From: Lytechinus pictus
Lineage: Eukaryota
Assembly (NCBI RefSeq): GCF_037042905.1
Contig: NC_087250.1
Location: 11,038,001-11,102,000 of the forward strand
DNA length: 64,000 nt
Direction of reading: 5' to 3'
Shown: one piece after another, positions 1-64,000 of the stretch
Layout of the letters: each line of letters starts with the position of its first letter
How positions within the stretch are numbered: position 1 is the stretch's first letter
Program-made: the position numbers and the translations under genes
Notes under the pieces: generated by a model
What the model was told of the DNA's origin: nothing
Database searches by the model: none
The model's input: the letters and a program-made list of their open reading frames with translations, nothing else

Positions 1-893
1 GCTGGGGCTACTTTTCCATGGTCTCCTATCATAACATTGCTAAAATGTCATGTGGCGTGTGATACATGTACGTCTAAAACTAAACAAAACCCAAGAATCA
101 GACCGAGTCCAGTGTCTTGATGTGTGCACAATGTGACTGTTACTTCTTTCATATGTTAACAGTTATTTAATAACAATGCATTCATCACGTGCCCGAAGAC
201 GCCAAATTCAAGTTTCTTGCCTTTCATACACAACTACGCCACGTACGACTGTACGCTTTCTATTACGTAGTGCATTCAGGTATACGTATACGGCGTTTTC
301 ATTTGAACAAATTCACTCGGCCTACATAACTCACATAATTTCCTAACTTAAGAACCATATTTCAGCATGCCACATGGCTTAAATGATAACATAACTAATA
401 AACCTAAAGATAAACAAATAATACTCACGTCATTGGGCTCGTATCACCAAATTAAAGAAATTTAACAAAAACTATGGGCAAGCGACACGCTTCCCATGAC
501 CAGACAAAATAGCAATACGCCCTCAATCGGTAAATTTAAATCTAAAAAAAAAAACGATTTACAAGATGAAACTAAAACAGTTTCACAACAATTTGAGACA
601 TTCCAAAAATTTCATCCTGTAGGCGACATGTAATACACTACTCAAAAAAAGTTAAGGGCCACTTTTTAAAACGTACATAAAGATTTTATACAAGGTGTTT
701 TATTTCTGGAAATACCTCAGTACAACTGTCCTAAATGTCCTTAAACACGCTGTAATCTATTTCACGCATGGGTGGTTTCAGTTGTTGCACAATGTCTCTC
801 GCATCACTGCACATCCTGAAAAGTGGGCCCCGAGGGGTATCAGCTACCGACATGAAGTGGTAAAAACGAATGTCTGAGTGTCTTTCAGGCAGT

Positions 894-1660
894 TCAGTAA
901 CGAGTGTGACCACCTCCTGCAGCAATAACGGCTTCACAGCGCTGTCTCATGGAGCTGATGAGGCGATTGATGTCTCTGACGTCCAGTGCATCCCATGCAG
1001 CCTCCAGAGCCACACCAAGCTGCTGCAGTCCAAGTGGATGGGCTTCGAGCTGCTCGAGACTCCTCCCCATCATGTCCCAGACGTGCTCTATCAGGTTTAA
1101 GTCCGGGGACCTCGCTGGCCACTCCATACGCTCAATCCCCTGGCCCTCAAGGAACTCGGTCACCACCCTAGCTCGGTGGGCACGGGCATTGTCATCCATG
1201 AAAATGATGTTTTGTCCCACATTTTCTGCAAATGGCACCACTATAGGTTCAAGGACCTCATCCCTGTACCTCACTCCTGTCATTGCTCCCCCTGGGACCA
1301 CGTAGAGACGAGTACGGTTGGCGTAGGTGATGCCTCCCCACACCATGACGCTGCCTCCCCCATAACGGTCATGTTCTGCAATACAGGGGTCTGCAAATCT
1401 CTCTCCTGGTCGCCTCCAGACTCTCGAACGTCCATCATTGTGGTCAAGGGAAAATCTGCTCTCATCTGTGAACAGAACTCTACGCCATTGCTGTCTGGTC
1501 CATCTGACATGCTCCCGGGCCCAGTTGAGACGAATTCTTCTGTGAGCAGGGGTGAGTGGGACACACTGAGCTGGCCGTCTGGCATGCATATTGGCTCTGT
1601 GAAGTCGGTTACGGATTGTTTGAGTGGAAACAATCACTCCAGTTGCTGCAGCGAAGTCAT
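894..1660 (-). pseudogene. Inverted duplicate of the 3' three-quarters of the Tc1 transposase (catalytic domain, lacking the first ~87 codons)
   Basis: ORF 894..1667 on the minus strand matches the plus-strand copy from DFAAATG onward except RFSL vs RSSL. Its listed start is a TTG created by the junction. Confidence 0.9.
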
Positions 1661-2689
1661 ATGCCAAGACACCACCTAAGTGAAACAGATGTAGCCAGAG
1701 CCCTAGGGATGCTGGAAGCTGGCCTCAGTCAGCGAAGAGTAGCCAGAATGATGGGCGTGTAACACAGTGTCATTAGCAGAGCAAATCAAAGACACCGAGA
1801 GACAGGGCTATACTCCGAGAGACCCCGCAGTGGCCGACCAGTTTCGACAACCCCTAGAGATGATCGCTACTTGACGAATCTCAACCTCCGCAACCGCTTT
1901 CACAGTGCACGCCGCCTCAACAATGACTTCGCTGCAGCAACTGGAGTGATTGTTTCCACTCAAACAATCCGTAACCGACTTCACAGAGCCAATATGCATG
2001 CCAGACGGCCAGCTCAGTGTGTCCCACTCACCCCTGCTCACAGAAGAATTCGTCTCAACTGGGCCCGGGAGCATGTCAGATGGACCAGACAGCAATGGCG
2101 TAGAGTTCTGTTCACAGATGAGAGCAGATCTTCCCTTGACCACAATGATGGACGTTCGAGAGTCTGGAGGCGACCAGGAGAGAGATTTGCAGACCCCTGT
2201 ATTGCAGAACATGACCGTTATGGGGGAGGCAGCGTCATGGTGTGGGGAGGCATCACCTACGCCAACCGTACTCGTCTCTACGTGGTCCCAGGGGGAGCAA
2301 TGACAGGAGTGAGGTACAGGGATGAGGTCCTTGAACCTATAGTGGTGCCATTTGCAGAAAATGTGGGACAAAACATCATTTTCATGGATGACAATGCCCG
2401 TGCCCACCGAGCTAGGGTGGTGACCGAGTTCCTTGAGGGCCAGGGGATTGAGCGTATGGAGTGGCCAGCGAGGTCCCCGGACTTAAACCTGATAGAGCAC
2501 GTCTGGGACATGATGGGGAGGAGTCTCGAGCAGCTCGAAGCCCATCCACTTGGACTGCAGCAGCTGGGTGTGGCTCTGGAGGCTGCATGGGATGCACTGG
2601 ACGTCAGAGACATCAATCGCCTCATCAGCTCCATGAGACAGCGCTGTGAAGCCGTTATTGCTGCAGGAGGTGGTCACACTCGTTACTGA
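1661..2689 (+). pseudogene. Tc1-like transposase, 342 codons, with an in-frame premature TAA at codon 34 (1760-1762)
   Basis: The ATG at 1661 reads MPRHHLSETDVARALGMLEAGLSQRRVARMMGV*HSVISRANQRHRETG...RPRSGRP and continues in frame into ORF 1871..2689. It has an N-terminal HTH-like region, a GRP motif, and the catalytic motifs TDES, MDDNA and SPDLNLIEH, with 34 residues between the second D and the E. Confidence 0.93.
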
Positions 2690-3221
2690 ACTGCCTGAAA
2701 GACACTCAGACATTCGTTTTTACCACTTCATGTCGGTAGCTGATACCCCTCGGGGCCCACTTTTCAGGATGTGCAGTGATGCGAGAGATATTGTGCAACA
2801 ACTGAAACCACCCATGCGTGAAATTGATTACAGCGTGTTTAAGGACATTTAGGACAGTTGTACTGAGGTATTTCCAGAAATAAAACACCTTGTATAAAAT
2901 CTTTATGTACGTTTTAAAAAGTGGTCCTTAACTTTTTTTGAGTAGTGTATTTCAAAAGTTTTACTTCAAATTATTGGGTGTTTTTTTTCTTTCATAAGGA
3001 CATAAAGCGGTATACTACTCAAGTGATATTTAGATAAGTGCCCTAGGGAGATAGGTACTTAAGAGAAAACAACAAATCCTTGATAATTAGGTTCATGGCC
3101 TATGAAAATGTTGTCTTTGCCCCTTGTCATAATTTACTTACCCAGTTGCCAATTTGAAATCTATATGGTCTTTATGGGAGTCTAAATTCTAAAGCAGCCA
3201 TAACTTTGTTATTGCTTGTCT

Positions 3222-7680: not shown

Positions 7681-8590
7681 ATGAAGAAGATGATGATTTT
7701 GATGTTGATGAAGATGATGATGATAATGATGGTGATAATGATGATGATGTTGATTATGATGATGGTGATGATTATGATGGTGGTGATGGTGATGATGATG
7801 ATGGTGATGGTAATCGTGGTGATGATGATGATTATGAAGATGGTGATGATGATGATTATGAAGATGATAATGATGGTGATGATGGAGATGATGATAATGA
7901 TGAAGATGATAATGATAATTATGATGATGGTGATAATGATGATGATGGAGATGATGATAATGATTGTGATGATGATGATGATGTTGATTATGATGATGGT
8001 GATGGTGGTGATCGTGGTGATGATGATGATTATGAAGATGGTGATGATGATAATTATGAAGATGACAATGATCGTGATGATGGTAGTCATGGTGATGATT
8101 ATTATGAAGATGATAATGATGGTGATGATGGAGAGGATGATAATGATGGTGATAATGATGAAGATGATAATGATGGTGATGATAATGATAATTATGATGA
8201 TGATGATGGTGATGAATATGATGATGAAGATGATGGTGATGATGAAAATGATGATACTGATGATGAAGATGAAGATAATGATGAAGATGATGATGATGAT
8301 TATGATAATGGTGATGATGGAGATGATGATAATGATGATGATGGTGATGATTATGAAGATGATGAAGATGATGATTATGAAATAAGATGATGATTATGAA
8401 ATAAGATGATGATAATGATGGCGATAATGATGATGATGATTATGATAAAGATGACGATTGTAATGATATTGATGATCATGATCATGATGATAATGATAAT
8501 AATGATGATGATGATGATGATGATAGTAATAAAAATGATAATATAATGATATAAACATTTATAACAATGGTGGCGATGATGATGATGATC
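7681..8590 (+). repeat. Imperfect (GAT)n trinucleotide microsatellite, ~900 bp
   Basis: Seen directly. It generates the Asp-rich, Met-rich and Ile-rich ORFs in three frames. Confidence 0.95.
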
Positions 8591-40155: not shown

Positions 40156-41557
40156 CCCAGGACCAAAATCCAGTTGAAACCAATTGAAACCAATAGGGAA
40201 ATTGAAACAACTGGAACCAATTGAAACCAGTTGCCAACTGGTTCCAGTTACAACCAATTGGGCAACTGGAACCAGTTGGCAATTGGTTTCAATTGGTTCC
40301 AGTTGAAAACAATTTCCCTATTAAAACCAGTCGAATCCAATTGGAGGTAACTGGTTTCAATTGGTTCTAGTTGAAACCAATTGGAGGCAACTGGTTTCAA
40401 CTGGAACCAGTTGAAACTAATTGGTTTCCAACTGGATCCAATTGGAACTTCCAGTTGGAATGACTTAATTAGTTACAAATTAATTAGATTTTGCACTAAC
40501 TATTGCTCATGCCAACAAAGAAGCAGTGCTATATGTCTATAATACCAATGTAAAGGGCATTGATAAGTAGACTTTCATAATGTATATATACTGCATGAAA
40601 GATCTTCAAATATATGTATTTGATGTAATTTGGTAACAGTTAGTGGTGTACTAATTATCTTATAATCTGTTTTAATTATAATCTATGACATTTATGAACA
40701 TGGTTTTCACTGCTAAGCATTCTAAACACTTATCTGAAACAAGTATGGTACTTGAAATAGAAAATAATTAAATAGATACATTTTAAATGATGATGAATCA
40801 CATAAAACATTAATCTGTGCACACTGGCAGATAATATGCAAATTAACTGGTTTCAATTGGAACCAGTTGGGTAACTGGAAAATTTCCAATTGGAAACCAA
40901 TTGGAAGTCATTTCCAGTTACCCAACTGGATCCAGTTAGGATTTCCAGTTACCCAACTGGTTCCAGTTAGGATTTCCAGTTACCCAACTGGTTCCAGTTA
41001 GGATTTCCAGTTACCCAACTGGTTCCAGTTAGGATTTCCAGTTACCCAACTGGTTCTAGTTAGAAATCATTTCCAGTTGGAAGTAATTTCCAGTTACCCT
41101 ACTGGTTCCAGTTAGGATTTCCAGTTACCCAACTGGTTCCAGTTAGGATTTCCAGTTACCCAACTGGTTCCAGTTAGAAATCATTTCCAGTTGGAAGTCA
41201 TTTCCAGTTACCCAACTGGTTCCAGTTAGGATTTCCAGTTACCCAACTGGTTCCAGTTAGAAATCATTTCCAGTTGGAAGTCATTTCCAGTTACCCAACT
41301 GGTTCCAGTTAGGATTTCCAGTTACCCAACTGGTTCCAGTTAGAAATCATTTCCAGTTGGAAGTCATTTCCAGTTATTACCCAACTGGTTCCAGTTAGGA
41401 TTTCCAGTTGCCCAACGGGATCCAGTTAGGATTTCCAGTTGCCCAACTGGTTTTAACTGGAAATTGTTATATTCCAGTTAAAACCAATTGAAACCAATTG
41501 AAACCAATTGAAACCAGTTGGAAATCCAACTGGTTTCAATTGGATTTTGGTCCTGGG
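40156..41557. mobile_element. Non-autonomous TIR element with CCC...GGG ends and a 2-bp TA TSD (CMC/EnSpm-like), rich in CCAGTT/AACTGG subterminal repeats
   Basis: Structure is TA|CCCAGGACCAAAATCCA(G/A)TTGAAACCA ... TGGTTTCAATTGGATTTTGGTCCTGGG|TA. Confidence 0.85.
40910..41455 (+). repeat. 31-bp minisatellite (TTCCAGTTACCCAACTGGTTCCAGTTAGGAT) with longer variants
   Basis: Direct tandem copies are visible. Each unit contains the small hairpin CCAGTT-ACCC-AACTGG. Confidence 0.9.
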
Positions 41558-45900: not shown

Positions 45901-47587
45901 AAATACATTTTCAGTTGTCAGGTTGGAATATCAAATATTTTTAGCTTGTGCTTCTCGTTCGCATAAAAAACTGTAAGGTCGGGATGCGTATATAACTAAA
46001 CAATGTATTGATGCCAGCGCGAAGCGCGAGCTAAATTTTTTATATGCTGACTTAAGAAGGACTAAGGTATAATTCCTATTCTAATTGCTTGTCCTTTTTC
46101 TCTTCCTTTTTTCTGTTTCTTACCCCTTTTTTGCGCCACCATGGGGGGGGGGGGCAAAATATTTGCCCCCTGGATCGGCTTATGTATGTTGACTTGAAAA
46201 ACACTAACACTTACATGTGGGATTGAAGCAGAGGATGAATACCTCGTTAATCAAATATTGCGAGCGCGTAGCGCGAGCTGAATTTGATAATAACCCTTTT
46301 TTGTGACCCTGAACAGTGTATCTTTCTCGCTAAACAGACTTAAAACTCGAAAACATTGTTTTTCCTGTTATCGTAAAAACGGGATATTTTAATTCAGCCG
46401 CATTAATTTAAGTTTTTTGGGCAGGACATATGTTTCACTATTAAAGTTCAAGGTCAATTTGGCGCCCTCGGTTGAACATAAACTTGGCGCCCCCATGTGA
46501 AATATAACTTTGTCCTCCCTCCCCCTCTCTGAAACATGTATTTGACGCATTATGGTCAAAATTCAAATTAGCGCTCCCCAAGTTCGAACATCAATTTGGT
46601 GCCCCGCTAGATCGAACATCAATTCAGCGCCCCATAGTTCGAACGTCATTTTGGCGCCATCAAATCGACGTCCAGGTCAACATCTCCCTCTTCCGTTTCC
46701 CATCTCCTTTTCTTTCTTTTTTCTTTCTCTTATCCTCATTCCCCTTCCTTCCTTTTTCTTTCTTTCTCTATTTCTTTCCCCCTCTTCTTTTCCCCCTTTT
46801 CTTCTCTTTCCCCCGATCTTTTCTTTCCCCCTTATCTTCTCTTTTTCTGTCTTTTCTTTCCCTCTTTTCCTCTCTCTCTTTTCTCGCTTTTCCTCTCTTC
46901 CCCCTTACTCTCTCTTTTTTCTTCTCTTTTCCTCTCTTCTTCTCTCTCTCTCTTTTCTTATCTTTCTTCCCATCTTCCTCTCTCCTTAAATATTATTCTC
47001 TTCCTCTTTTTTTCTTCTTCTTTTCCCCCTTTTCCTTATTATGTTCTTTTCTTTCTTTTCCCTCTTCCACTTTTTTCTCTTTCCCCCTTTACCTCTCCCT
47101 TTTTCTTTTTCTTTTTCTTTCCTTTCCCTCTTTTTTCTCTTTTAATTTTTTTTTCTTCTCTCCCTCCCCTTCCTCCCTCTCTCTCTCTATCTTCTCTACT
47201 TTTCCCCTCTTCCTCTCTCTCTCTTTTTTCTTATCTTTCTTCCCATCTTCCTCTCTATTTAAATATTCTTCTATTCCTTCCTCTTTTTTTTCTTCTTTTT
47301 CCTCCTTTTCCTTTCTCCTTTCTTTTCTTCTTTTCCTTTTCCCTCCTCTTTTTTTACTCTTCTTTCCCCTTTTCATCTCCATTTTTTTCTTTGTCTTTCC
47401 TTTCCCCTTTTTCTTATCTTTTTTCTTCTCTTCCTTTCTCCTTCTTACTCTCTTTTCTATTCTCTTCTTTTCCCATCTTCCTTTTTTTTTATTCTCTCCC
47501 TTTTCCCCTCTTCCCCCCTCTTTTTTGAGCTGGGGGTGGGGGGGGGGTGAGGTAGTTCCCCCTCGGTCCCCCATGGATCCGCACCTG
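42940..47587. mobile_element. hAT-like non-autonomous element with 8-bp TSD ATAGAACC, containing further unresolved nested ends (43388, 43616, 43728, 45806)
   Basis: Structure is ATAGAACC|CAGGCGCGGATCCA ... TGGATCCGCACCTG|ATAGAACC. Confidence 0.88.
46680..47525 (+). repeat. Polypyrimidine (C/T) low-complexity tract, ~850 bp
   Basis: The tract is almost exclusively C/T and produces the F/S/L-rich and K/E/R-rich spurious ORFs. Confidence 0.92.
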
Positions 47588-48443
47588 ATAGAACCCATGG
47601 CTTCGTATCATTTGACCTTTGGACCTCTCGATGACATTTGATATATCTGATCATAATTTTACACACACTGCGGACTATCGGACCCGCGGTCTATCGGACC
47701 CGCGGACTATCGGACCCGCGGTCTATCGGACCCGCGCTCTATCGGGATGTCCCCATTCATTAAGCTATACATGCTTTCAGCCCAGACCATCCCTTTAAAG
47801 GCTCCGTATAAAATAAACCTAATTGTAATAGAAAGCAATGTCATCGACCTAAGACAGGTGGCAAGCGTGCCTTTGTAGAATGCTGTTGCCGGTATGCGAT
47901 GTTTTCTATACGGTCGGCGCACATGAAACACAATTGCGTCGCTTGTATACTACTTTGCGGTTAAACCCGAGACGTTCCCACGCGTACATTTCGAGGGCAA
48001 CAATTCAGTACGCGTTTGGAAGAAAATTACCCTGTTTACACGTGCATCGGCTTTTGGTTCAGAATTGGCTTTTGGTCTATCTTGCACCGCAGAATCGGCT
48101 TACCCTCTTTGGGAATCGACGGGCGGACGACATTTGGATCTCTTAGTCTCGCCTTCACCTCTTGCGGGCGAGACAAACAATGAGAAAGAGAAGGAAGAAA
48201 GGAGAAAGGAAAAGGGCCAATAATTGGAATGATCAAACAAATCTAATCATCTTGAAATAGGGCCTACTAATAAACAAGTGAGAAAGGGGTTAGAAATAAA
48301 GAGATGGCAAAGTGGAACGGAAATTTTAGGCGGGAAAGGGAAGGAAGAGAGGCCAAAATAAACGGGATGCGAAAATGCTAACATGAAATCGGAATAGAAA
48401 ACAGAAAAAACAAGAGGGGAAAAGAAAGAAATTGAGAACACAA

Positions 48444-51744: not shown

Positions 51745-54110
51745 ATTAGCTTGACGAATGAAATCCCCGGTCTTCTGTCTTCGTTTTCCAGACACCCAAC
51801 AACAGGTTTGGAAAACGAAGACCGAAGACCGGGGACATGCGTAATGTCAATAGTAGTAAAATAGTTGCAAACGCCAGTTGAGTTGAGTCTGCTTGTACGT
51901 GATTGCGCAGTATAGGGTGTATTGTATGCAAGTTTTCAGTTTTATGACAGTTTTCAGAATTGCAATGGCTGAATTCCGTGGGTGAAATATGTACATTATA
52001 ATTGTTATCTATCCTTATTAATCATGCCCTAGCTGATAACGATATTCACACAAATAACCATAACTTATCCGCAGCCAATCATAGCTGATGACGTATCCAA
52101 GATCAGAATATTCTTAAACTGGAGCTGAATATTATAGGCCTATCTTAGCTAGACGAATACGCAATCCCCGGTCTTCTGTCTTCGTTTTCCAGACACCCAA
52201 CAACAGGTTTGGAAAACGAAGACCGAAGACCGGGACATGCGTAATGTCAATGGTAGTAAAATAGTTGCAAACGCCAGTTGAGTTGAGTCTGCCTGTACGT
52301 GATTGCGCAGTATGAGGTGTATTGTATGCAAGTTTTCAGTTTTATGACAGTTTTCGGAATTGCAATGGCTGAATTCCGTGGGTGAAATATGTACGTTATC
52401 CTTAATATCATGCCCTAGCTGATAACGATATTCTAACAAATAACCATAACTTATCCGCAGCCAATCATAGCTGATGACGTATCCAAGATCAGAATATTCT
52501 TAAACTGGAGCTAAATATTATAGGCCTATCTTAGCTAGACGAATACGCAATCCCCGGTCTTCTGTCTTCGTTTTCCAGACACCCAAAAAAGGTTTGGAAA
52601 ACGAAGACCGAAGACCGGGGACATGCGTAATGTCAATGGTAGTAAAATAGTTGCAAACGCCAGTTGAGTTGAGTCTGCTTGTACGTGATTGCGCAGTATG
52701 GGGTGTATTGTATGCAAGTTTTCAGTTTTATGACAGTTTTCAGAATTGCAATGGCTGAATTCCGTGGGTGAAATATGTCCATTATAATTGTTATTTATCC
52801 TTATTAATCATGCCCTAGCTGATAACGATATTCACACAAATAACCATAACTTATCCGCAGCCAATCATAGCTTATGACGTATCCAAGATCGGAATATCCT
52901 TGTACTGGTGCTGAATATTATAGGCCTATCTTAGCTAGACGAATACGCAATCCCCGGTCTTCTGTCTTCGTTTTCCAGACACCCAACAACAGGTTTGGAA
53001 AACGAAGACCGAAGACCGGGACATGCGTAATGTCAATGGTAGTAAAATAGTTGCAAACGCCAGTTGAGTTGAGTCTGCCTGTACGTGATTGCGCAGTATG
53101 AGGTGTATTGTATGCAAGTTTTCAGTTTTATGACAGTTTTCGGAATTGCAATGGCTGAATTCCGTGGGTGAAATATGTACGTTATCCTTAATATCATGCC
53201 CTAGCTGATAACGATATTCTAACAAATAACCATAACTTATCCGCAGCCAATCATAGCTGATGACGTATCCAAGATCAGAATATTCTTAAACTGGAGCTAA
53301 ATATTATAGGCCTATCTTAGCTAGACGAATACGCAATCCCCGGTCTTCTGTCTTCGTTTTCCAGACACCCAACAACAGGTTTGGAAAACGAAGACCGAAG
53401 ACCGGGGACATGCGTAATGTCAATGGTAGTAAAATAGTTGCAAACGCCAGTTGAGTTGAGTCTGCTTGTACGTGATTGCGCAGTATGGGGTGTATTGTAT
53501 GCAAGTTTTCAGTTTTATGACAGTTTTCAGAATTGCAATGGCTGAATTCCGTGGGTGAAATATGTCCATTATAATTGTTATTTATCCTTATTAATCATGC
53601 CCTAGCTGATAACGATATTCACACAAATAACCATAACTTATCCGCAGCCAATCATAGCTTATGACGTATCCAAGATCGGAATATCCTTGTACTGGTGCTG
53701 AATATTATAGGCCTATCTTAGCTAGACGAATACGCAATCCCCGGTCTTCTGTCTTCGTTTTCCAGACACCCAACAACAGGTTTGGAAAACGAAGACCGAA
53801 GACCGGGGACATGCGTAATGTCAATGGTAGTAAAATAGTTGCAAACGCCAGTTGAGTTGAGTCTGCTTGTACGTGATTGCGCAGTATGGGGTGTATTGTA
53901 TGCAAGTTTTCAGTTTTATGACAGTTTTCAGAATTGCAATGGCTGAATTCCGTGGGTGAAATATGTACGCTATCCTTAATATCATGTCCTAGCTGATAAC
54001 GATATTCACACAAATAACCATAACTTATCCGCAGCCAATCATAGCTGATGACGTATCCAAGATCAGAATATTCTTGAACTGGTGCTGAATATTATAGGCC
54101 TATCTTAGCT
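51745..54110 (-). repeat. Inverted short array (~6 monomers) of the same satellite
   Basis: Reverse-complement monomers alternate long and short, with palindromes at about 51765, 52165, 52552, 52952, 53338 and 53739. Confidence 0.97.
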
Positions 54111-56529
54111 AGACGAATTGACGCGATCCCCGGTCTTCTGTCTTCGTTCTCCAGACACCCAACAACAGGTTGGGAAAACGAAGACCGAAGACCGGGGACA
54201 TGCGTTATGTCAATGGTAGTAAAATTGCAAATTAATGTCAGCCAATTAAGAAGGAAAAACCAGTTCACAGAATGTAATTCTTGAAAATGGAAAAACGGCA
54301 TACTGGTCTAACTGGTCGAGTTCACTTTACTGGACCAGTTAAGAATTAAACTGGTCTGAAATTACTGGCCTAGAGTTAACCTTTAACTGGAAATTTGAAA
54401 CTGGTCTGATTGATTACTGGAGTTTGTTACTTGTCTCAGTGGAATAGTGGTGTAAACTGGGAGACCTATCCCGCTTCAACTGGTCTAACTATACTAATTA
54501 TTGACACAAGCAATTAACATGACTTCATTATCAGCCAATTAATGACATTAATGTATTCTAGATCAGAATATTCTTGAATTTGAGCTGAATAATAGAGGCC
54601 TTCATAATGACATTTATAAGTGGTATCTTAGCTAAACGAATGCGATCCCCGGTCTTCGGTCTTCGTTTTCCAGACACCCAACAACGGGTTTGGAAAACGA
54701 AGATCGAAGACCGGGGACCCGTGCATTGTCAATGGGAGAACATGTGTCGGGGCAAGGTCCAAAGTCCATTCTAACCCGCGCACGTGTTTTGTATACACTT
54801 TGCACTGCTTTGTACACACTGGGCGTGAACCACAAACGCTTTCACACGAGTGTGATATGAGTCCCCGGTCTTCGGTCTTCGGTCTTCGTTTTCCAGACAC
54901 CCCTAGTATTCGTTTTCACGTACCTTTCATTCCATTTATTAGGGTTTTATCAACCATGTCAACGAATTGACGATCCCAATATTGACCGCATGTTTGTTTT
55001 AACATGAGAATTCGCAAATGCCCTTGATATTCATAATTCTGTTTTATTTTAAGTTTGTCATTAATGTTTGTTAACATTCACTCTGCTAATAACTTGTCAA
55101 TTTTGATTTACAAAAAAAAATCAAGTCTGCTTACTGATGTCCTTTGTCTATTTTAATTATTTTTTGTTGTTGATATGCCTTTCTTTCTTTTTTCCTGATT
55201 CCACCCTGTGCACCCCGTTAAAACTCAAGGAAGAATGTTTCAAATGTTTTCTAGTTCTTACACCGTTCATAATAAGGAGATGGGATTAGGTGTAAAGTTA
55301 ACGCTGAAGGGAGAGGAATGGGTACGTATGGAGAGAGAGAAAAAAACTTATCACAAAAGATAAAGAATTGATCTCCATGACATTAAATCACAATTGCGTC
55401 CTATTTTTTTAACAAGTTTGTATGATACATGTATGCCTCCCACGTAAGGCGTAAGGAAAAAAGTTTACCTAATGCATCAAATTAGATTAATTGATTAGAT
55501 TCATTGCGGTAAATGAAAAACAATAAATTCGATGTTCCAGCCAGGGTGACCAGATTTCACAAAATTTAATACGGGACAATCGACAAAGCACTATGTACCA
55601 TCGGATCGACCGAGCCAGGCCAAAAATCAACAAGAAGGCTACACAATGTTAGACTTGTTAACAAAATATATTAAGAAAGGGGAAGGGATGGTGAGCGGAA
55701 GAAACAAAAGAGAAAAAAATGAGGAAACAAGAAATGAGTTGCGAGGAAAGAAAAAAAAATAAGGAGAGAAAAGAGAAAAGTAAGAAAAATGGAGGAAAAG
55801 AGAAAGAAAGAAAGAAAAGGAATTCCTTCATTATTTGAAAGAAACAAAGACAAAAGAAAACATGAAGGAAGCAAGGAATGAAGAAAGGAAAGAAGGAATA
55901 AGGGAAAAGAATTAAAAGGGAAAACAGAAATTAAAAAATGAAAGAAAAGAAAACAAATAACATCTAAAAAAAAAAAATCTAGAATAGATTCTGATCACGC
56001 TAGTTTAAAAATATAATGGTCTATCACAACATAACCAAAGTACATGCACATGTATACATAATGCAATGTACGTACCCTAGGGTACCCGAGGATAAGTGCG
56101 GGCACGGCCAATATTATATAGCACGCAGGAAACTGCGGGCGCGGCTAAAACCCTAGGGGGCTCCCCTTGAATACCCTCGGTTAGACGCAAAAGCCCCCTA
56201 GGGTGTTTGCGTGCTCGGGCGTGACGTTTCCTGCGGCCGGCACTGTATTATTTAACGAAAATAAGGTGAAAATCTTGTAGTTTGTATTCCTTCATCTCTT
56301 TTCAACTAATGCTCATGAAATTTGGCACACACATCAGTCTTGAGTTGAAAATGTGCGAGAATATTTTTGTTTGTATCAGAAATCGTGTTGCCAAGGTAAC
56401 AACATATCATACGCCAAAATAAGATTAAGACAGTGGTCAATGCTAACTTTTGTTTGGCTACATAGAAAACGACATGTAGCTGTGGGCTTCGTTATCGTTT
56501 TTAATTTTAGGGTGGGGGGGGGGGGGGCT

Positions 56530-58446: not shown

Positions 58447-61240
58447 AATAATAATAATAAAGATAAAACATTGTATTTATATAGCGCTTAATACATGGTG
58501 TTTCTAAGCGCTTTACAAAAACAATTAAGTAGTATACATTAATATAATTGAACATTTAGTAAACAAGAAAGGAAATGTAAAGTGTAAAGTATTATCATAT
58601 TACAAATTAGGTAAGAAACGGCCTAATCAAGTTGGTAAATACAAAATAATAATAATAATAAAAGTAGTGACCATGATGACGGTTATTAATTAAGTAGTTC
58701 GAATACAATAAATTAAACAAAATTAATTATCAGAAATCCAATGACATATAATGTTCGAATAGTAAAGCAGTGCAATAGCTGTACATAAACAAACAAGAAA
58801 GAAAGGAACATTCGTTTGATATTGACAAGATTAAACTCAAAACTTAAATGAAGAATTGTGAAGGTAAGTTTTGAGGGAAGCTTTGAATGATTCGAATAAT
58901 GGGGCATCCCTCAATTCTATGGGAAGGTCATTCCAAAATTTTGGAGCAACAACACTAAATGCTCAGTTCCCATGCTTTGTCCGAGCTCTTGGTCCTTGGG
59001 CTAGTTGCAGATGAAGATGTGTGGAAGATCGGAGTCGTATGGATGTTGTCGGGATCCTAGGTGGGAGAAGGTCGCTAATATAAAAAGGGGCTTGACCATC
59101 TTGCGTTGTGTAAGTTATAATCAAGAGTTAGAAGATGATACGTGCAGAGACAGGAAGCCAGTGAAGAGAACGAAGGATAAGGGTGATGTTGTCGTGCTTT
59201 CTGGAACGAGTTACAAGCACCTCTAAACCTGAAGAAGACACGTAGAACCTTAGTTTTAGGGTCATTAAATTGAAGATTGTTCTATAGTGACCAGTCCTTA
59301 ACCTCTGCCTCCACAAATTGCATTGCTGCAATTTGTGGAGGCCAACGTTATGTTCGTCAAGTCTGATGACAGCATAAAACTGAGTGTCATCTGCGTACAT
59401 GATGTGCTTGACTCCTTTATGCGTGCTAATGACCTGCGATAGTGGACCGGTGTACAGTGCAAACGCCAAAGGACCAATGACAGAGCCCTGATGGATTCCC
59501 TTGTTGTTAACTTTGACCCTCTGTCTCCGATTTTCTAAGTTGGAAACCAGCCACTGTTGACCAACACCCTTGATACCATATTAACTTCAAGGATGGAGAT
59601 CAGATTTCCATGGTGACGGTCAATAGTATCAAAGGCAGTACCGTTATCTAGTAGAACCAATATCGCCTCATAACCCTTGAAGACAGCCAGTAAGAGATCG
59701 TTCGTTACTTTCACGAGCGTTCTAAGTTGTTTCCGTTGAGTGGAACGAACGATAGCCCGACTGCAAGGGAAACAAACACTTATTTTCTAGATACGCTTTC
59801 AACTGGAAGCTCGCAACTCGTTCAAGAACTTTTGCAAGGAACATTTGGTTTGACACAGGTCTATAGTTCCGAAGATCATTAGGATCTCAGCCACGTTTCT
59901 TCAGCAGGGGAACTACTTGGGCGACCTTGAAGCTGTCAGGAAGACTCCCAGAAGACAGCGATACGTTTACGGTGGAAGTGATAACTGGCAACCCATACAA
60001 CCCATACAACGCTTGACCAACCATGTTGGAAGAGGATCCAGCTTACAATATTTCGAACTCATGGCACCAATCACTTTTCTGACCTGGTTTCAGATACTGG
60101 TTCAAACGAAGAAAACTCACTATCACATCAGGGAATTTCCCCTAATTGACATTGAGTTGGGTCAAATCCTTTAATAATTTTAGGAATTTTCCTCTCGAAG
60201 AACTCACCAAGGTCATTTGCTAGTGACTCATCTGAATCCTGATTGGGAAGCACAGAAACTCGATCCGGGCAAGACAGCTTTTGGACAAACTTGAAAAGTT
60301 GTATTGTGTCACACTCTACAACTTCAGCTGACAGAAACTGTGTTGTTTGACACTGCACGGCGTTTTACTCGCTTAGCCTGACGAATGGAGTCGGTTAACC
60401 AAGGAGCCCGTGACCTTAAGGACACAACAGATGATTTAATTGGTGTGTGCTTATCCAATAGTTCCTACATCACATTGTACTGTAGAACTATTTCGGAAGA
60501 ACAAGATGAGAGCGAAGATGTAAGAGAAGATGCCAGAATGTCCAACCTGAATGAGTCCATAATGATATCACGAAACTTCCTGCAAGTGACAAGCTTCTTG
60601 GTGGCGGGCAGGTGTTCTAACCTAAAAGTGCACCATATACAGTCATGATCAGAAGGGAGACCCCTGATGAAATCAATCACAAGGACTACTTCGTCGACCC
60701 TTCTGGTTATCAGCAGATCTAGCGTATGCCCCGCTCTATGTGCGGAAGACATAACATGTTGTCGGAAACCGGCCTCATCCAAGGTATTGAGGAAAGTGGT
60801 AGCATATTTATCGTTGCGGTCATCTACATGTATGATGAAGTCACCAACCAACAGTGGAATTTTTTCAACTATTGCTACTGATTCCATAAGTGACGAAAAA
60901 TCCTTCAAGAACAAAACAAAATTAGTTTGTTCTTTGATGATGGAGATGGTCTGTAGATGGCAAAGATATGAAACACCAATGCATCATTAGACCGAATGGT
61001 GAAGTCCATCAACTCGAATGACTGAAAGTTGCTGAAGTCTTGAAGACTCACTTTGACCGTGGAACGATGGATGATGCAGATGCCTCCACCAGAACTTGTC
61101 GTACGAGGTTTGTGCACTATATCGTAATCATTAGGAGTCGTCCTAATGTCGGCAAGAGTATGATAGAGTATGATTATCCCGATGATCGCCCTTAAGCTAC
61201 GATTCGGTGACGATGAACACATCAAAGTCATTATCAATTA
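58447..61240 (-). mobile_element. Decayed L2-like LINE (APE endonuclease plus RT, many frameshifts and stops) with a (TTA)n 3' tail
   Basis: Minus-strand motifs include GGGICIIHR/IYRP (60905-61237), LVGDF..HVD, GHTLDLLITR and SDHDCI (60465-60914), and MYADDTQFY and LRSLHWLPVSARI (59128-59469). The 3' end is AAGCGCTTAGA...AAGCGCTATATAAAT...(TTA)n at ~58447-58513. Confidence 0.88.
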
Positions 61241-61574: not shown

Positions 61575-62787
61575 ATGACCGACATGTCGTATGTAGATAT
61601 GGCCACACCCCGACGTAGCGCCACGTATGAACGTAATGGCCCGAAGCCGGTCTTCATTGCAGCACGGGACATTCCATCAGCAAGAACTCCCTTAACAGGT
61701 GAGGACCTATACTGTTGCCTTATAAAATGTGTAAAACCCGAGCATATAGCCGGTATCCAGCGAATTGGTTCATTGTGGCGCTTATACCTAACTGAGCATG
61801 ATGAACGAGTGAAAGTGATTGTGAACGGCTTGTTTCTGCGCGGTGTGACTGTGTCTGTACATGATACGAACCCCTTTACAAAAGCCAGAGATGAACTTAT
61901 GACAAGGGTCTTGGTCAAAGATGTACCCCCTCAGTGGGAGATGACCTTATAAGAGCAACTTTGGAAGGGATGAAGTGTAACATAAGAGGAGAGATCATCC
62001 GACAGCAGCTCCGCGTCGGTGGATAGCTAACGTGCTGTCTGAATGGGGACCGCGTCGTTTACATAGACCCCCCCAGCAAGCCCCTCCCCAGATTTCTAGT
62101 CATTGCTAATGTGTTTCGTGCTAGAGCATTTCATGTCGGCCAGCCAGAACGAGAATCAGGAACAGCGATCTGTTCAAAGTGCTTGGAAAGCGGTCATCAT
62201 GCGTCTACTTGTAAAAACCCAGTAAAATGTCGTTCATGTAAACAAACGGGGCACCTGAGCCACAGCTGCCCCGCGAAGGCGTCTTCGAGCCATGGCAACG
62301 AAGACAATAGCGCCCAACCATCGACGAGCAGCCAACTGATGAGTCAACTCACTCAACTGAGTACCCCCGGCGTGAATCAAGTACGATGTTACGTCATTCG
62401 GCAAGGGTTCCCCATGATGACGTCAGCACAGTTGGGAGAAAGACACGTCAATTCGGCATTTCGGATTTCTTGAGACCAAAAGATACCACTGCTACTGGCC
62501 CTGCTACTGGCGTTGCCAACGATTCTGCTACCGGTTCTACTCCTGTGGAACATGTTTCGCGTCAAAGATCGAGCGATGTCGAATACGCTTCTCATCGCAG
62601 TACAACGCGTGATGATGGAGAAGATGAATTCACAAGTTGCTACTCGACTTCAAGCGACGACGAGAAATCACCACTATCACCGGAAACTCCAACTCCAGAC
62701 AGGCAAAAACATGGAAAAACATCTACGAAAAGGAAATTGAAAGGAAAGAAAACAAGCAAAAAAGCAGAGTGCAAAGGAAAACACTAA
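61575..62787 (+). pseudogene. Tx1/L1-clade LINE ORF1 (nucleic-acid-binding protein with two CCHC zinc knuckles), disrupted
   Basis: ORF pieces 61575-61952, 62111-62473 and 62386-62787 are joined by frameshifts and a TAG near 62023. The knuckles are CSKCLESGHHASTC and CRSCKQTGHLSHSC, followed by a basic C-terminus. Confidence 0.8.
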
Positions 62788-62869: not shown

Positions 62870-64000
62870 ATGAATGATGACTCGATTTCTCTTCACCTTA
62901 TATCCCTGAATGTGAGAGGAATGCGGGATAAAAGGAAAAGAAGCAAAATTATATCGTAGCTTCGTGCACAAAAGACAGATATTGCTTGTTTACAAGAAAC
63001 TTACTGGACGAAAGAACTTGAACACGAGATTTCATCACAATGGAATGGTGCATGTTTTTTTAGTAATGGGTCTAACCACTCCAAAGGGGTTGCAATATTA
63101 TTAAGAAAGAAATTACCTCTAGAAATTGTAAACGTCTATGCCAGAAATGATGGAAGGACCGTTGCTCTTAAATTAATGTATAACAATTGTTGTTATTTAT
63201 TATTGAATGTTTATGCGCCAACAAAGTATTCTGATAAAGTCATATTTTTTAAAAACCTACTCCATTGGTTTAACGAAATTAAGAAACCTGGAGATATATT
63301 AATTTGTGGAGGTGATTGGAATACTACACAAACTTATTTAGATTCTCGTGGCACATCTCGAGTCTATAAACCACCCAATCATTTCAAGAAATTCATTCAA
63401 AAAAATGTATTGGTTGATGTTTGGAGGAAATTATATCCCACGAAGAAACAATTTACTTGGCGACAGAGGTTTTTGGTGTCTATTCTAGATTAGATTACTG
63501 GCTAATTTCAACAACACTATATCCTTCAATGTACAGCACTGATATACGCCCAGCACTTAAATGTGATCATAATGCCATTTCGCTAAAGTTGAATTTGAGT
63601 GGTATTGGGAAAGGCAAAGGTTATTGGAAAGTAAATAATTCACACTTACTAGAACAAGATTTTATAATCTGTATTAAACATGTGATTAATAAAGTAAAAA
63701 TGGAATTCATGAATGAAAGTCCACAGCTTATATGGGAAATGTGTAAAATTAAAATAAAAGAGGTCACTGTGAAATATTCTAAACAAAAACAAGAAGAAAG
63801 AAAATGTTATTATACAAAGTTACAAGATGATCTCAATAAACAGAGTGGAAAGGCTGATAAAAATCCAAACAAGAAATAAATTGATAAGTTAGAAACAATC
63901 AGAAATGAATTAGATAAACTTTACACATATAAGTGCAAAGGTGCGTATATTAGAGCTAGGGAGAAATGGATGGAGTCTGGCGAAAAGTCGTCCAAGTATT
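62870..64000 (+). pseudogene. Tx1/L1-clade LINE ORF2 N-terminus (APE endonuclease), disrupted and truncated by the window end
   Basis: The ATG at 62870 reads ...ISLNVRG..., with a TAG at 62957, then CLQETY, SKGVAIL, LNVYAP, GGDWN and DVWR. A frameshift near 63470 is followed by SRLDYWL, DHNAI and YWKVNNS, a stop at 63877, and GAYIRAREKWMESGEKSSKY. Confidence 0.9.

Follow-up and report, generated by a model that had tools for sequence, protein, structure and literature searches.

How does a transposon come to carry the same end twice, and does the palindrome that results do anything? The question is raised by a rearranged Tc1-type element of 2312 bp at positions 636-2947 of the 64,000-nucleotide stretch of Lytechinus pictus DNA analysed here (contig NC_087250.1; this whole stretch is called the window). 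In this element the DNA upstream of the transposase start codon has been exchanged for an inverted copy of the element's own last 1025 bp, and two arms of about 1 kb now enclose a loop of 262 nt. The element is an unusually large and young example of the fold-back derivatives with two identical ends which are ascribed to faulty gap repair. We set out below the evidence for its structure and age and then ask how it was formed, whether it moves and whether it could silence its own family.

Structure of the rearranged element

The inverted repeat is made up of two arms of 1032 nt each, flanks included (629-1660 and 1923-2954), which are 99% complementary and are separated by a spacer of 262 nt. 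When the arms are compared base by base, no insertion or deletion is seen and only six substitutions are found, at the paired sites 631/2952, 658/2925, 758/2825, 794/2789, 1017/2566 and 1453/2130. A 1-kb inverted repeat with six substitutions cannot have arisen by chance. Five of the six mismatches lie inside the element proper (636-1660 and 1923-2947, 1025 nt each) and amount to 0.49% of the 1025 sites.

The right arm (1923-2947, plus strand) runs on from the loop without a break and in the same arrangement as in an ordinary element. It contains codons 88-342 of the transposase gene, the 3′ untranslated region (3′UTR) and the right-end terminal inverted repeat (TIR). The left arm (636-1660, minus strand) is the inverted copy of exactly this portion. 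At the outer ends the element starts with CACTACT at 636 and finishes with AGTAGTG at 2947, and a TA dinucleotide adjoins it on both sides (634-635 and 2948-2949). TIRs next to TA are the hallmark of Tc1/mariner elements, but here the termini show it in a trivial manner because both of them are the right end. The inverted repeat does not stop at the transposon termini and reaches 7 nt beyond them, as the left flank TGTAATA (629-635) and the right flank TATTTCA (2948-2954) are complementary at six of seven positions. Within 400-3200 the motif AATAAA is present only once on each strand, at 2879-2884 on the plus strand and at 699-704 on the minus strand, the latter being the poly(A) signal of the element itself as carried by its inverted portion. 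No further copy of the element is found elsewhere in the 64-kb window.

The transposase gene and its family

Loop and right arm together form a complete transposase gene of the DD34E Tc1 type (1661-2689, plus strand; 342 codons followed by TGA at 2687-2689), which is broken only once, by a TAA stop at codon 34 (1760-1762). The loop (1661-1922, plus strand, 262 nt) supplies codons 1-87 together with base 1 of codon 88 and thus the N-terminal helix-turn-helix region. Behind the stop two domains are recognized above the curated cut-offs, PF01498 HTH_Tnp_Tc3_2 (E = 1.2e-18) and PF13358 DDE_3 (E = 1.3e-17). The catalytic residues, which we picked from the translation without a structural alignment, are D153, D244 and E279; 90 residues separate the first two and 34 the last two. 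The helix-turn-helix and DDE_3 domains and the spacing of the triad place the element among the Tc1-like DD34E members of Tc1/mariner.

The ATG at 1661 is supported as the start codon of the family by the protein clusters P0001 and P0002 (98% identity each) and P0003 (89%), all of 342 aa, which begin there with MPRHHLSE or MPRRHLSE. The same length is the commonest one among the best 120 relatives (33 of 120). The stop at codon 34, in turn, is private to this copy, since base 1761 is read as C in all four sequencing runs analysed (see below), which gives TCA (Ser) at this codon.

The family seems to be young, multi-copy and still alive, as intact open reading frames (ORFs) of 342 aa exist at 98% identity. 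Contigs of the family also occur in oligo-dT RNA libraries, and in one such run (X15) they leave the right end of the element into two different flanks, with DNA carry-over as a possible source. The share of family words is at least 0.60 in runs with five coded organism labels and in marine metagenomes, and it is 0.54-0.55 in echinoderm metagenomes. P0001 shares its 90% cluster with a protein deposited at NCBI under the sea spider Nymphon striatum. The spread of the family across these labels could be due to close relatives, to recent horizontal transfer or to cross-contamination.

The fold-back junction and the ordinary form of the element

The two halves of the palindrome meet at 1660/1661, where GAAGTCAT is directly followed by ATGCCAAGA. 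The junction AGTCAT/ATGCCA (1655-1666, plus strand) is blunt relative to the ordinary element and creates the sequence CATATG. The ordinary element was deduced from contigs of the public runs X1, X4, X8 and X15, which were compared with window positions 1500-3200. The runs considered carry five coded organism labels as well as marine and echinoderm metagenome labels, and they may not stem from the species of the window. The region 400-3200 is partly present in 20 of the 24 runs listed; in 16 of them at least half of the sampled words are found, with a maximum of 0.62.

In X1, X4 and X8 a contig of 1498 nt matches the window from 1661 to 2943 (1283 nt) with exactly five differences and carries 215 further letters upstream which are unrelated to the window. 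Directly before 1661 the upstream sequence of the X4 and X8 contigs ends with CAACAGCA, unlike the window with its GAAGTCAT. In X15 a contig of 986 nt likewise matches from 1661 on and is preceded by at least 255 non-matching letters. The ordinary form of the family is thus about 1.5 kb long, and the portion which has been replaced corresponds to its first 215-219 bp or so, namely the left TIR and the 5′ untranslated region. The rearranged element lacks the ordinary 5′ region. Since the ordinary contigs of all four runs part from the window at 1661, the fold-back junction lies exactly at the A of the ATG; homology to the ordinary element begins there to the base and no letter is common across the junction.

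These results agree with an earlier sequence-only reading of the locus in all of its factual items. That the DNA 5′ of the ATG is swapped for an inverted copy of the last 1025 bp follows from the arm alignment, and the right-end TIRs with TA on both sides from the terminal sequence. The scan of 400-3200 bears out a single AATAAA per strand late in the second arm, and translation of the frame from 1661 the stop at codon 34. The contigs of the ordinary element, finally, place the junction precisely at the start codon as had been stated. The same reading had proposed to look for microhomology at the ATG by comparison with an ordinary copy, and at the junction there is none.

In view of arms that extend over the TIR and the 3′UTR, we take the CATATG at the junction, an NdeI site, to be coincidental, and the fact that the junction falls on the ATG is regarded as chance. 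On the ordinary element the two breakpoints lie in similar surroundings of the form CA/ATG, that is AGCA/ATGCC and AACA/ATGAC (1657-1665 and 1919-1927), with seven of nine positions identical.

Substitutions, age and the reality of the structure

The ordinary contig allows each substitution to be assigned. It differs from the window at 1761, 1884, 2130, 2490 and 2789. Two of these changes are private to the loop (1761, which creates the stop, and 1884) and two are private to the right arm (2130, F157S, and 2789). Three further changes are private to the left arm (658, 758 and 1017). At 2490 both arms carry the same change (P277L, two residues ahead of the catalytic E), which therefore predates the duplication. 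From the 5 of 1025 sites at which the arms differ, the duplication is inferred to be about 10^5 to 10^6 years old, depending on the substitution rate.

Inverted chimeras arise in long-read and amplified libraries, and the palindrome might be such a product, either a fold-back read of chimeric origin or the result of two copies joined wrongly. The contigs of the four runs would be compatible with this, as none of them spans the junction 1660/1661 and none covers the unique flank at 2982-3095; these low-coverage sets assemble only repeats and are uninformative on the locus. Each arm, however, departs from the family consensus by substitutions of its own, without a single insertion or deletion, which argues against an echo of the assembly. 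The sequence-only reading had used the arm mismatches in the same sense, and the private changes strengthen its case. Moreover, the inverted copy ends at the transposon terminus and not at the end of a read, unique flanks are present on both sides, the loop of 262 nt is asymmetric, and the junction joins non-homologous positions, which is not expected for an overlap-based mis-join. We therefore consider an artefact very improbable, and as far as can be judged from the sequence the structure is confirmed to be real as described.

Origin of the rearrangement

We suggest that the element is a derivative with two right ends, which arose when a gap was repaired aberrantly and the ends were then joined blunt, and which is now an inert copy at a single locus. 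We hold this with slightly better than even confidence. The sequence of events could have been as follows. An ordinary copy was excised, and the gap would have been repaired by synthesis-dependent strand annealing (SDSA) with a sister copy as template. The strand growing from the left flank would have changed over, within the TIR, to the template's right end and copied it inward as far as 1923. The strand growing from the right flank would have copied inward as far as 1661. The two tails would then be of the same sense and unable to anneal, which fits the blunt junction; they could have been filled in and blunt-joined by end joining to give CAT/ATG, a joining step which we assume. The TA flanks would simply be those of the original insertion. 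Later on, point mutations would have accumulated in both arms and in the loop, among them the stop at codon 34.

A precedent for this route is Goblin, which derives from the Tc1/mariner element Ozma of a mosquito and in which both sides stem from the right subterminal region and are of unequal length (PMC3814204). In the account given there, the new left TIR switched template onto the right TIR during SDSA and end joining followed, and the same route is suggested for MITEs (miniature inverted-repeat transposable elements) with long TIRs or with the form of a whole hairpin, including the CeleTc1/Tc7 and PALTA families (PMC3814204).

Several points weigh against an origin by gap repair. The junction is without microhomology and the joining step had to be assumed. 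Upstream of 1661 the ordinary element is known from its last 30 letters, and the site of the template switch cannot be located. The likeness of the two breakpoint contexts is without explanation in this scheme, and it was noticed after the fact. Finally, the complementarity of the flanks, four of five positions over the 5 nt beyond the TA, is estimated to occur by chance in about 2% of cases at this AT content. The right flank could have been copied in place, or the target could have been an AT-rich palindrome. Apart from this, we tried by hand to model the joining through fold-back priming, a 2-nt AT overlap, a CA/TG overlap and paired CATTG tails; all of these models need an extra base and were abandoned.

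The reach of the repeat into the flanks, 7 nt past the TIR ends, would be accounted for by a replication error in situ. At the site of an ordinary insertion, a stalled fork that switched template or an inversion by fold-back might have copied the right arm together with 7 nt of right flank in inverted orientation and thereby displaced the 5′ end of the element and possibly some of the left flank. On the other hand, such copying would have halted only 7 nt past the transposon end, which is a coincidence in itself. Replication-based template switches usually show some microhomology, and at 1660/1661 there is none. In addition, Tc1-like elements favour AT-rich and partly palindromic targets, a preference reported for Sleeping Beauty (PMC4877112), and this would offer another source of the complementary flanks. 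We regard the replication error as unlikely.

Is the hairpin form mobile?

Another view is that the hairpin is a non-autonomous element which is able to move. It would have arisen elsewhere and would have been inserted at a TA by the transposase of the family, which would recognize the two right-end TIRs. The present copy, a large fold-back element, would then stand at the beginning of a MITE-like lineage. Such mobility is consistent with the TIR termini, which are intact on both sides, and with the adjoining TA dinucleotides, and fold-back or long-TIR derivatives of Tc1/mariner such as CeleTc1/Tc7 are described (PMC3814204). The TA flanks are, however, equally expected from formation in place: when an ordinary insertion is excised and the gap at its donor site is repaired, the same TA flanks stay behind, and they are thus no proof that the hairpin has moved.

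A second copy of the hairpin would speak for mobility, and three tests, each of them weak, did not reveal one. The element is present once in the 64-kb window, and no junction contig is seen in the four runs. For the third test we used a junction peptide, residues 1-40 of the minus-strand ORF 897-1724, and searched it against 5.8 billion proteins (cluster representatives of 151-483 aa). The junction was found in none of the 11 candidates; four of them were scored, and all four are ordinary transposases which match behind the junction only.

In metagenome contigs an exact 31-nt pattern from the start of the loop had no match, and a protein-guided search of metagenome contigs gave 17 loci, all with at most 49% identity and so outside the family. 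One further distant locus (35% identity) was found in contigs of prokaryote genomes and none in viral contigs. When these 18 distant loci were compared with themselves, none had kilobase-scale arms over the transposase gene; these negatives, too, carry little weight. Smaller palindromes occur among these distant IS630/Tc1 relatives. In the metagenome loci L009 (144-499) and L010 (1856-2211) a palindrome of 358 nt lies just upstream of the gene, and L005 has a 164-nt inverted copy of the gene start (1903-2063 and 2663-2826). We also considered whether the longest contig of cluster P0002 (2314 nt, compared with 2312 nt for the hairpin) is a second copy, and we dropped this candidate as the contigs of the same clusters span 1382-2592 nt.

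A possible companion comes from run X15, in which one contig parts from the family at 2350. The 28 non-matching letters before this position resemble by eye the reverse complement of the 3′UTR; the match is to 820-830 and 853-862 of the window, with about 21 nt skipped between the two, and AGTGGT is present on both sides. In the same run the depth is 116 on the 3′ side of 2350 and 15 upstream, for which oligo-dT bias is a possible cause. The contig may be a second and shorter two-right-ends derivative of the family, and as such it would favour mobility. Taken together we find the mobile hairpin unlikely, and the copy analysed here is at present most probably an inert derivative of gap repair at a single locus in repeat-rich DNA, its inertness being our assumption.

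Possible hairpin RNA and silencing

Transcribed from end to end, either strand is predicted to fold into a hairpin with a minimum free energy of -2271 kcal/mol and 1022 arm-to-arm pairs. The duplex is perfect over runs of 22, 99, 35, 222, 435 and 207 bp; the helix-turn-helix is encoded in the loop. An RNA made by read-through would thus be predicted to have a stem of about 1 kb and to be a plausible substrate for Dicer, provided that the element is transcribed at all.

By analogy to Mu killer of maize it could be imagined that the element silences its own family. The sequence-only reading had proposed a mobile, promoterless 'killer' or endo-siRNA source, and our tests, which were of low power, lent this no support. 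Read-through or TIR-driven transcription would yield a polyadenylated hairpin RNA, which Dicer would cut into small interfering RNAs (siRNAs), and these would repress the intact members. In favour of this, the arms span codons 88-342 with the whole DDE domain on both strands, provide perfect duplex of up to 435 bp and contain no AATAAA on either strand before the end of the second arm. The family looks alive, with its intact 342-aa ORFs at 98% identity and its contigs in oligo-dT RNA libraries. Precedents are at hand with the silencing hairpin of Mu killer (PMC3440606), the convergent transcription of the Sleeping Beauty inverted repeats (PMC3343047) and the composite Ac/Ds insertions, from which double-stranded RNA and siRNAs are made (bioRxiv 10.1101/2020.01.07.897926). 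Hairpin-RNA loci are also described in Drosophila (PMC10317233). Another possible fate of such an RNA is the excision of a paired element from the transcript, as described in C. elegans and in human cells (PMC11870413).

Against a silencer stands the loss of the 5′ part of the element, which is the presumed promoter region of the family, and the neighbourhood revealed no gene from which read-through could come. No contig spans the junction in the four runs, of which X1 and X15 are RNA or possibly RNA; contigs cannot show absence. The arms, moreover, decay at about the rate of the loop and give no sign of constraint, with counts too small for a test. Hence we consider a silencer of the Mu killer type quite unlikely. 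The same holds for the wider idea of a natural killer locus, which we put forward by analogy and think rather improbable: an active Tc1 family of a marine invertebrate would have made its own hairpin through faulty repair, its two inward-facing right ends or read-through would yield polyadenylated double-stranded RNA, siRNAs from it would have shut the family down, and the route via two right ends may recur, judging from the possible second inverted junction at 2350 in X15. If this were true, a single event would have both given rise to fold-back MITEs and set off silencing. The five arm positions at which the arms can be told apart make it possible to assign small RNAs to one arm or the other in the source species.

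Genomic setting

Elsewhere in the window 18 long ORFs were scanned, and none of them has a domain of a host gene. The domain matches in these ORFs are to a reverse transcriptase, a zinc knuckle and an endonuclease of the long interspersed nuclear element (LINE) type, all between 59 and 64 kb: RVT_1 at 59131-59580 (minus strand), the zf-CCHC zinc knuckle at 62027-62470 (plus) and Exo_endo_phos at 62960-63490 (plus). They represent fragments of retrotransposons without long terminal repeats.

A large part of the window is satellite DNA. A satellite with a 387-bp unit occupies about 29 kb (10636-39920; 74.6 copies, 94% match), and a second array of 6.3 copies lies at 51746-54225. The consensus of the second array is the reverse complement of that of the first, and the arrays are thus inverted relative to each other. 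The satellite monomer contains, as judged by eye, an inverted repeat of 26 nt (25 of 26 positions) with a spacer of about 18 nt. The setting looks like repeat-rich DNA, which is probably heterochromatic.

Shortly downstream of the element, the stretch 3096-3200 (pieces at 3110-3163) reaches a very high word depth in X1, with bin means of 72,257 (3096-3152) and 10,895 (3153-3200). The depth in the same bins is moderate in X4 (194 and 62) and zero in X8 and X15. The host genome probably contains this stretch as a short repeat in very many copies. Further features of the window are an (ATG)n microsatellite at 7681-8524 (844 bp, 72% match), tandem repeats at 40910-41429 which are nested and have periods of 31, 83 and 114 nt, and a region of strongly skewed composition at 46001-48000 with a GC skew of -0.40 and an AT skew of -0.43; a C/T-rich repeat of 90 nt lies within the latter at 46741-46904.

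Comparison with known systems

In the titles and abstracts surveyed, no natural kilobase-scale hairpin of the transposase gene of a Tc1/mariner element in an animal is described. Even as an accident of repair the element would be a clean and datable early-stage case, in which the parent family is still recognizable and every substitution can be traced either to one of the arms or to the copy from which they stem. With its two right ends and its unequal arms it illustrates the route proposed for long-TIR and fold-back MITEs of the Tc1/mariner type. Should the element be transcribed, it would represent an animal equivalent of Mu killer and would be relevant to how a newly invading DNA transposon is first recognized by its host.

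In fold-back derivatives with two same ends both ends come from one parental end, and this is found here. Such derivatives lack transposase coding capacity, whereas the present element has a full frame of 342 codons with one private stop. They are also repeated families with copies at different sites, mobilised in trans; of the present hairpin one copy was seen, in the window. The closest relative in kind is Goblin of Aedes aegypti (PMC3814204), likewise a Tc1/mariner derivative in which both sides of the junction stem from the parent's right end, inverted and of unequal length. As described there, Goblin is a miniature, non-coding, multi-copy element and its breakpoints show microhomology, whereas our element has arms of 1 kb, the whole transposase frame and a blunt junction and is found at one locus. 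The CeleTc1/Tc7 and PALTA families of C. elegans share with it the non-autonomous nature, the long inverted arms, the termini of the Tc1 type and the TA flanks (PMC3814204). In contrast to our element they are short, and their arms cannot be recognized as a transposase gene, the details on Tc7 being general background. They form repeated families whose mobility is known or inferred in the account cited, while the present element is known from one locus.

Two plant systems resemble the element in architecture. Mu killer of maize (PMC3440606, supplemented by general background) is a partial inverted duplication of a transposase gene which carries one terminal repeat twice and has no promoter of its own, and read-through transcription into a long hairpin RNA has been proposed for it. 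It differs from our element in that it belongs to the plant Mutator superfamily and in that, by the same sources, its transcription, its siRNAs and heritable silencing through plant siRNA pathways are demonstrated. The composite Ac/Ds insertions (bioRxiv 10.1101/2020.01.07.897926) are also inverted duplications of fractured copies which result from the element's own aberrant activity. According to that report they can be transcribed into double-stranded RNA and this function is established, whereas our element is known from its DNA alone. Unlike it, they belong to the plant hAT superfamily and are formed by sister-chromatid transposition with re-replication, which leaves flanking duplications.

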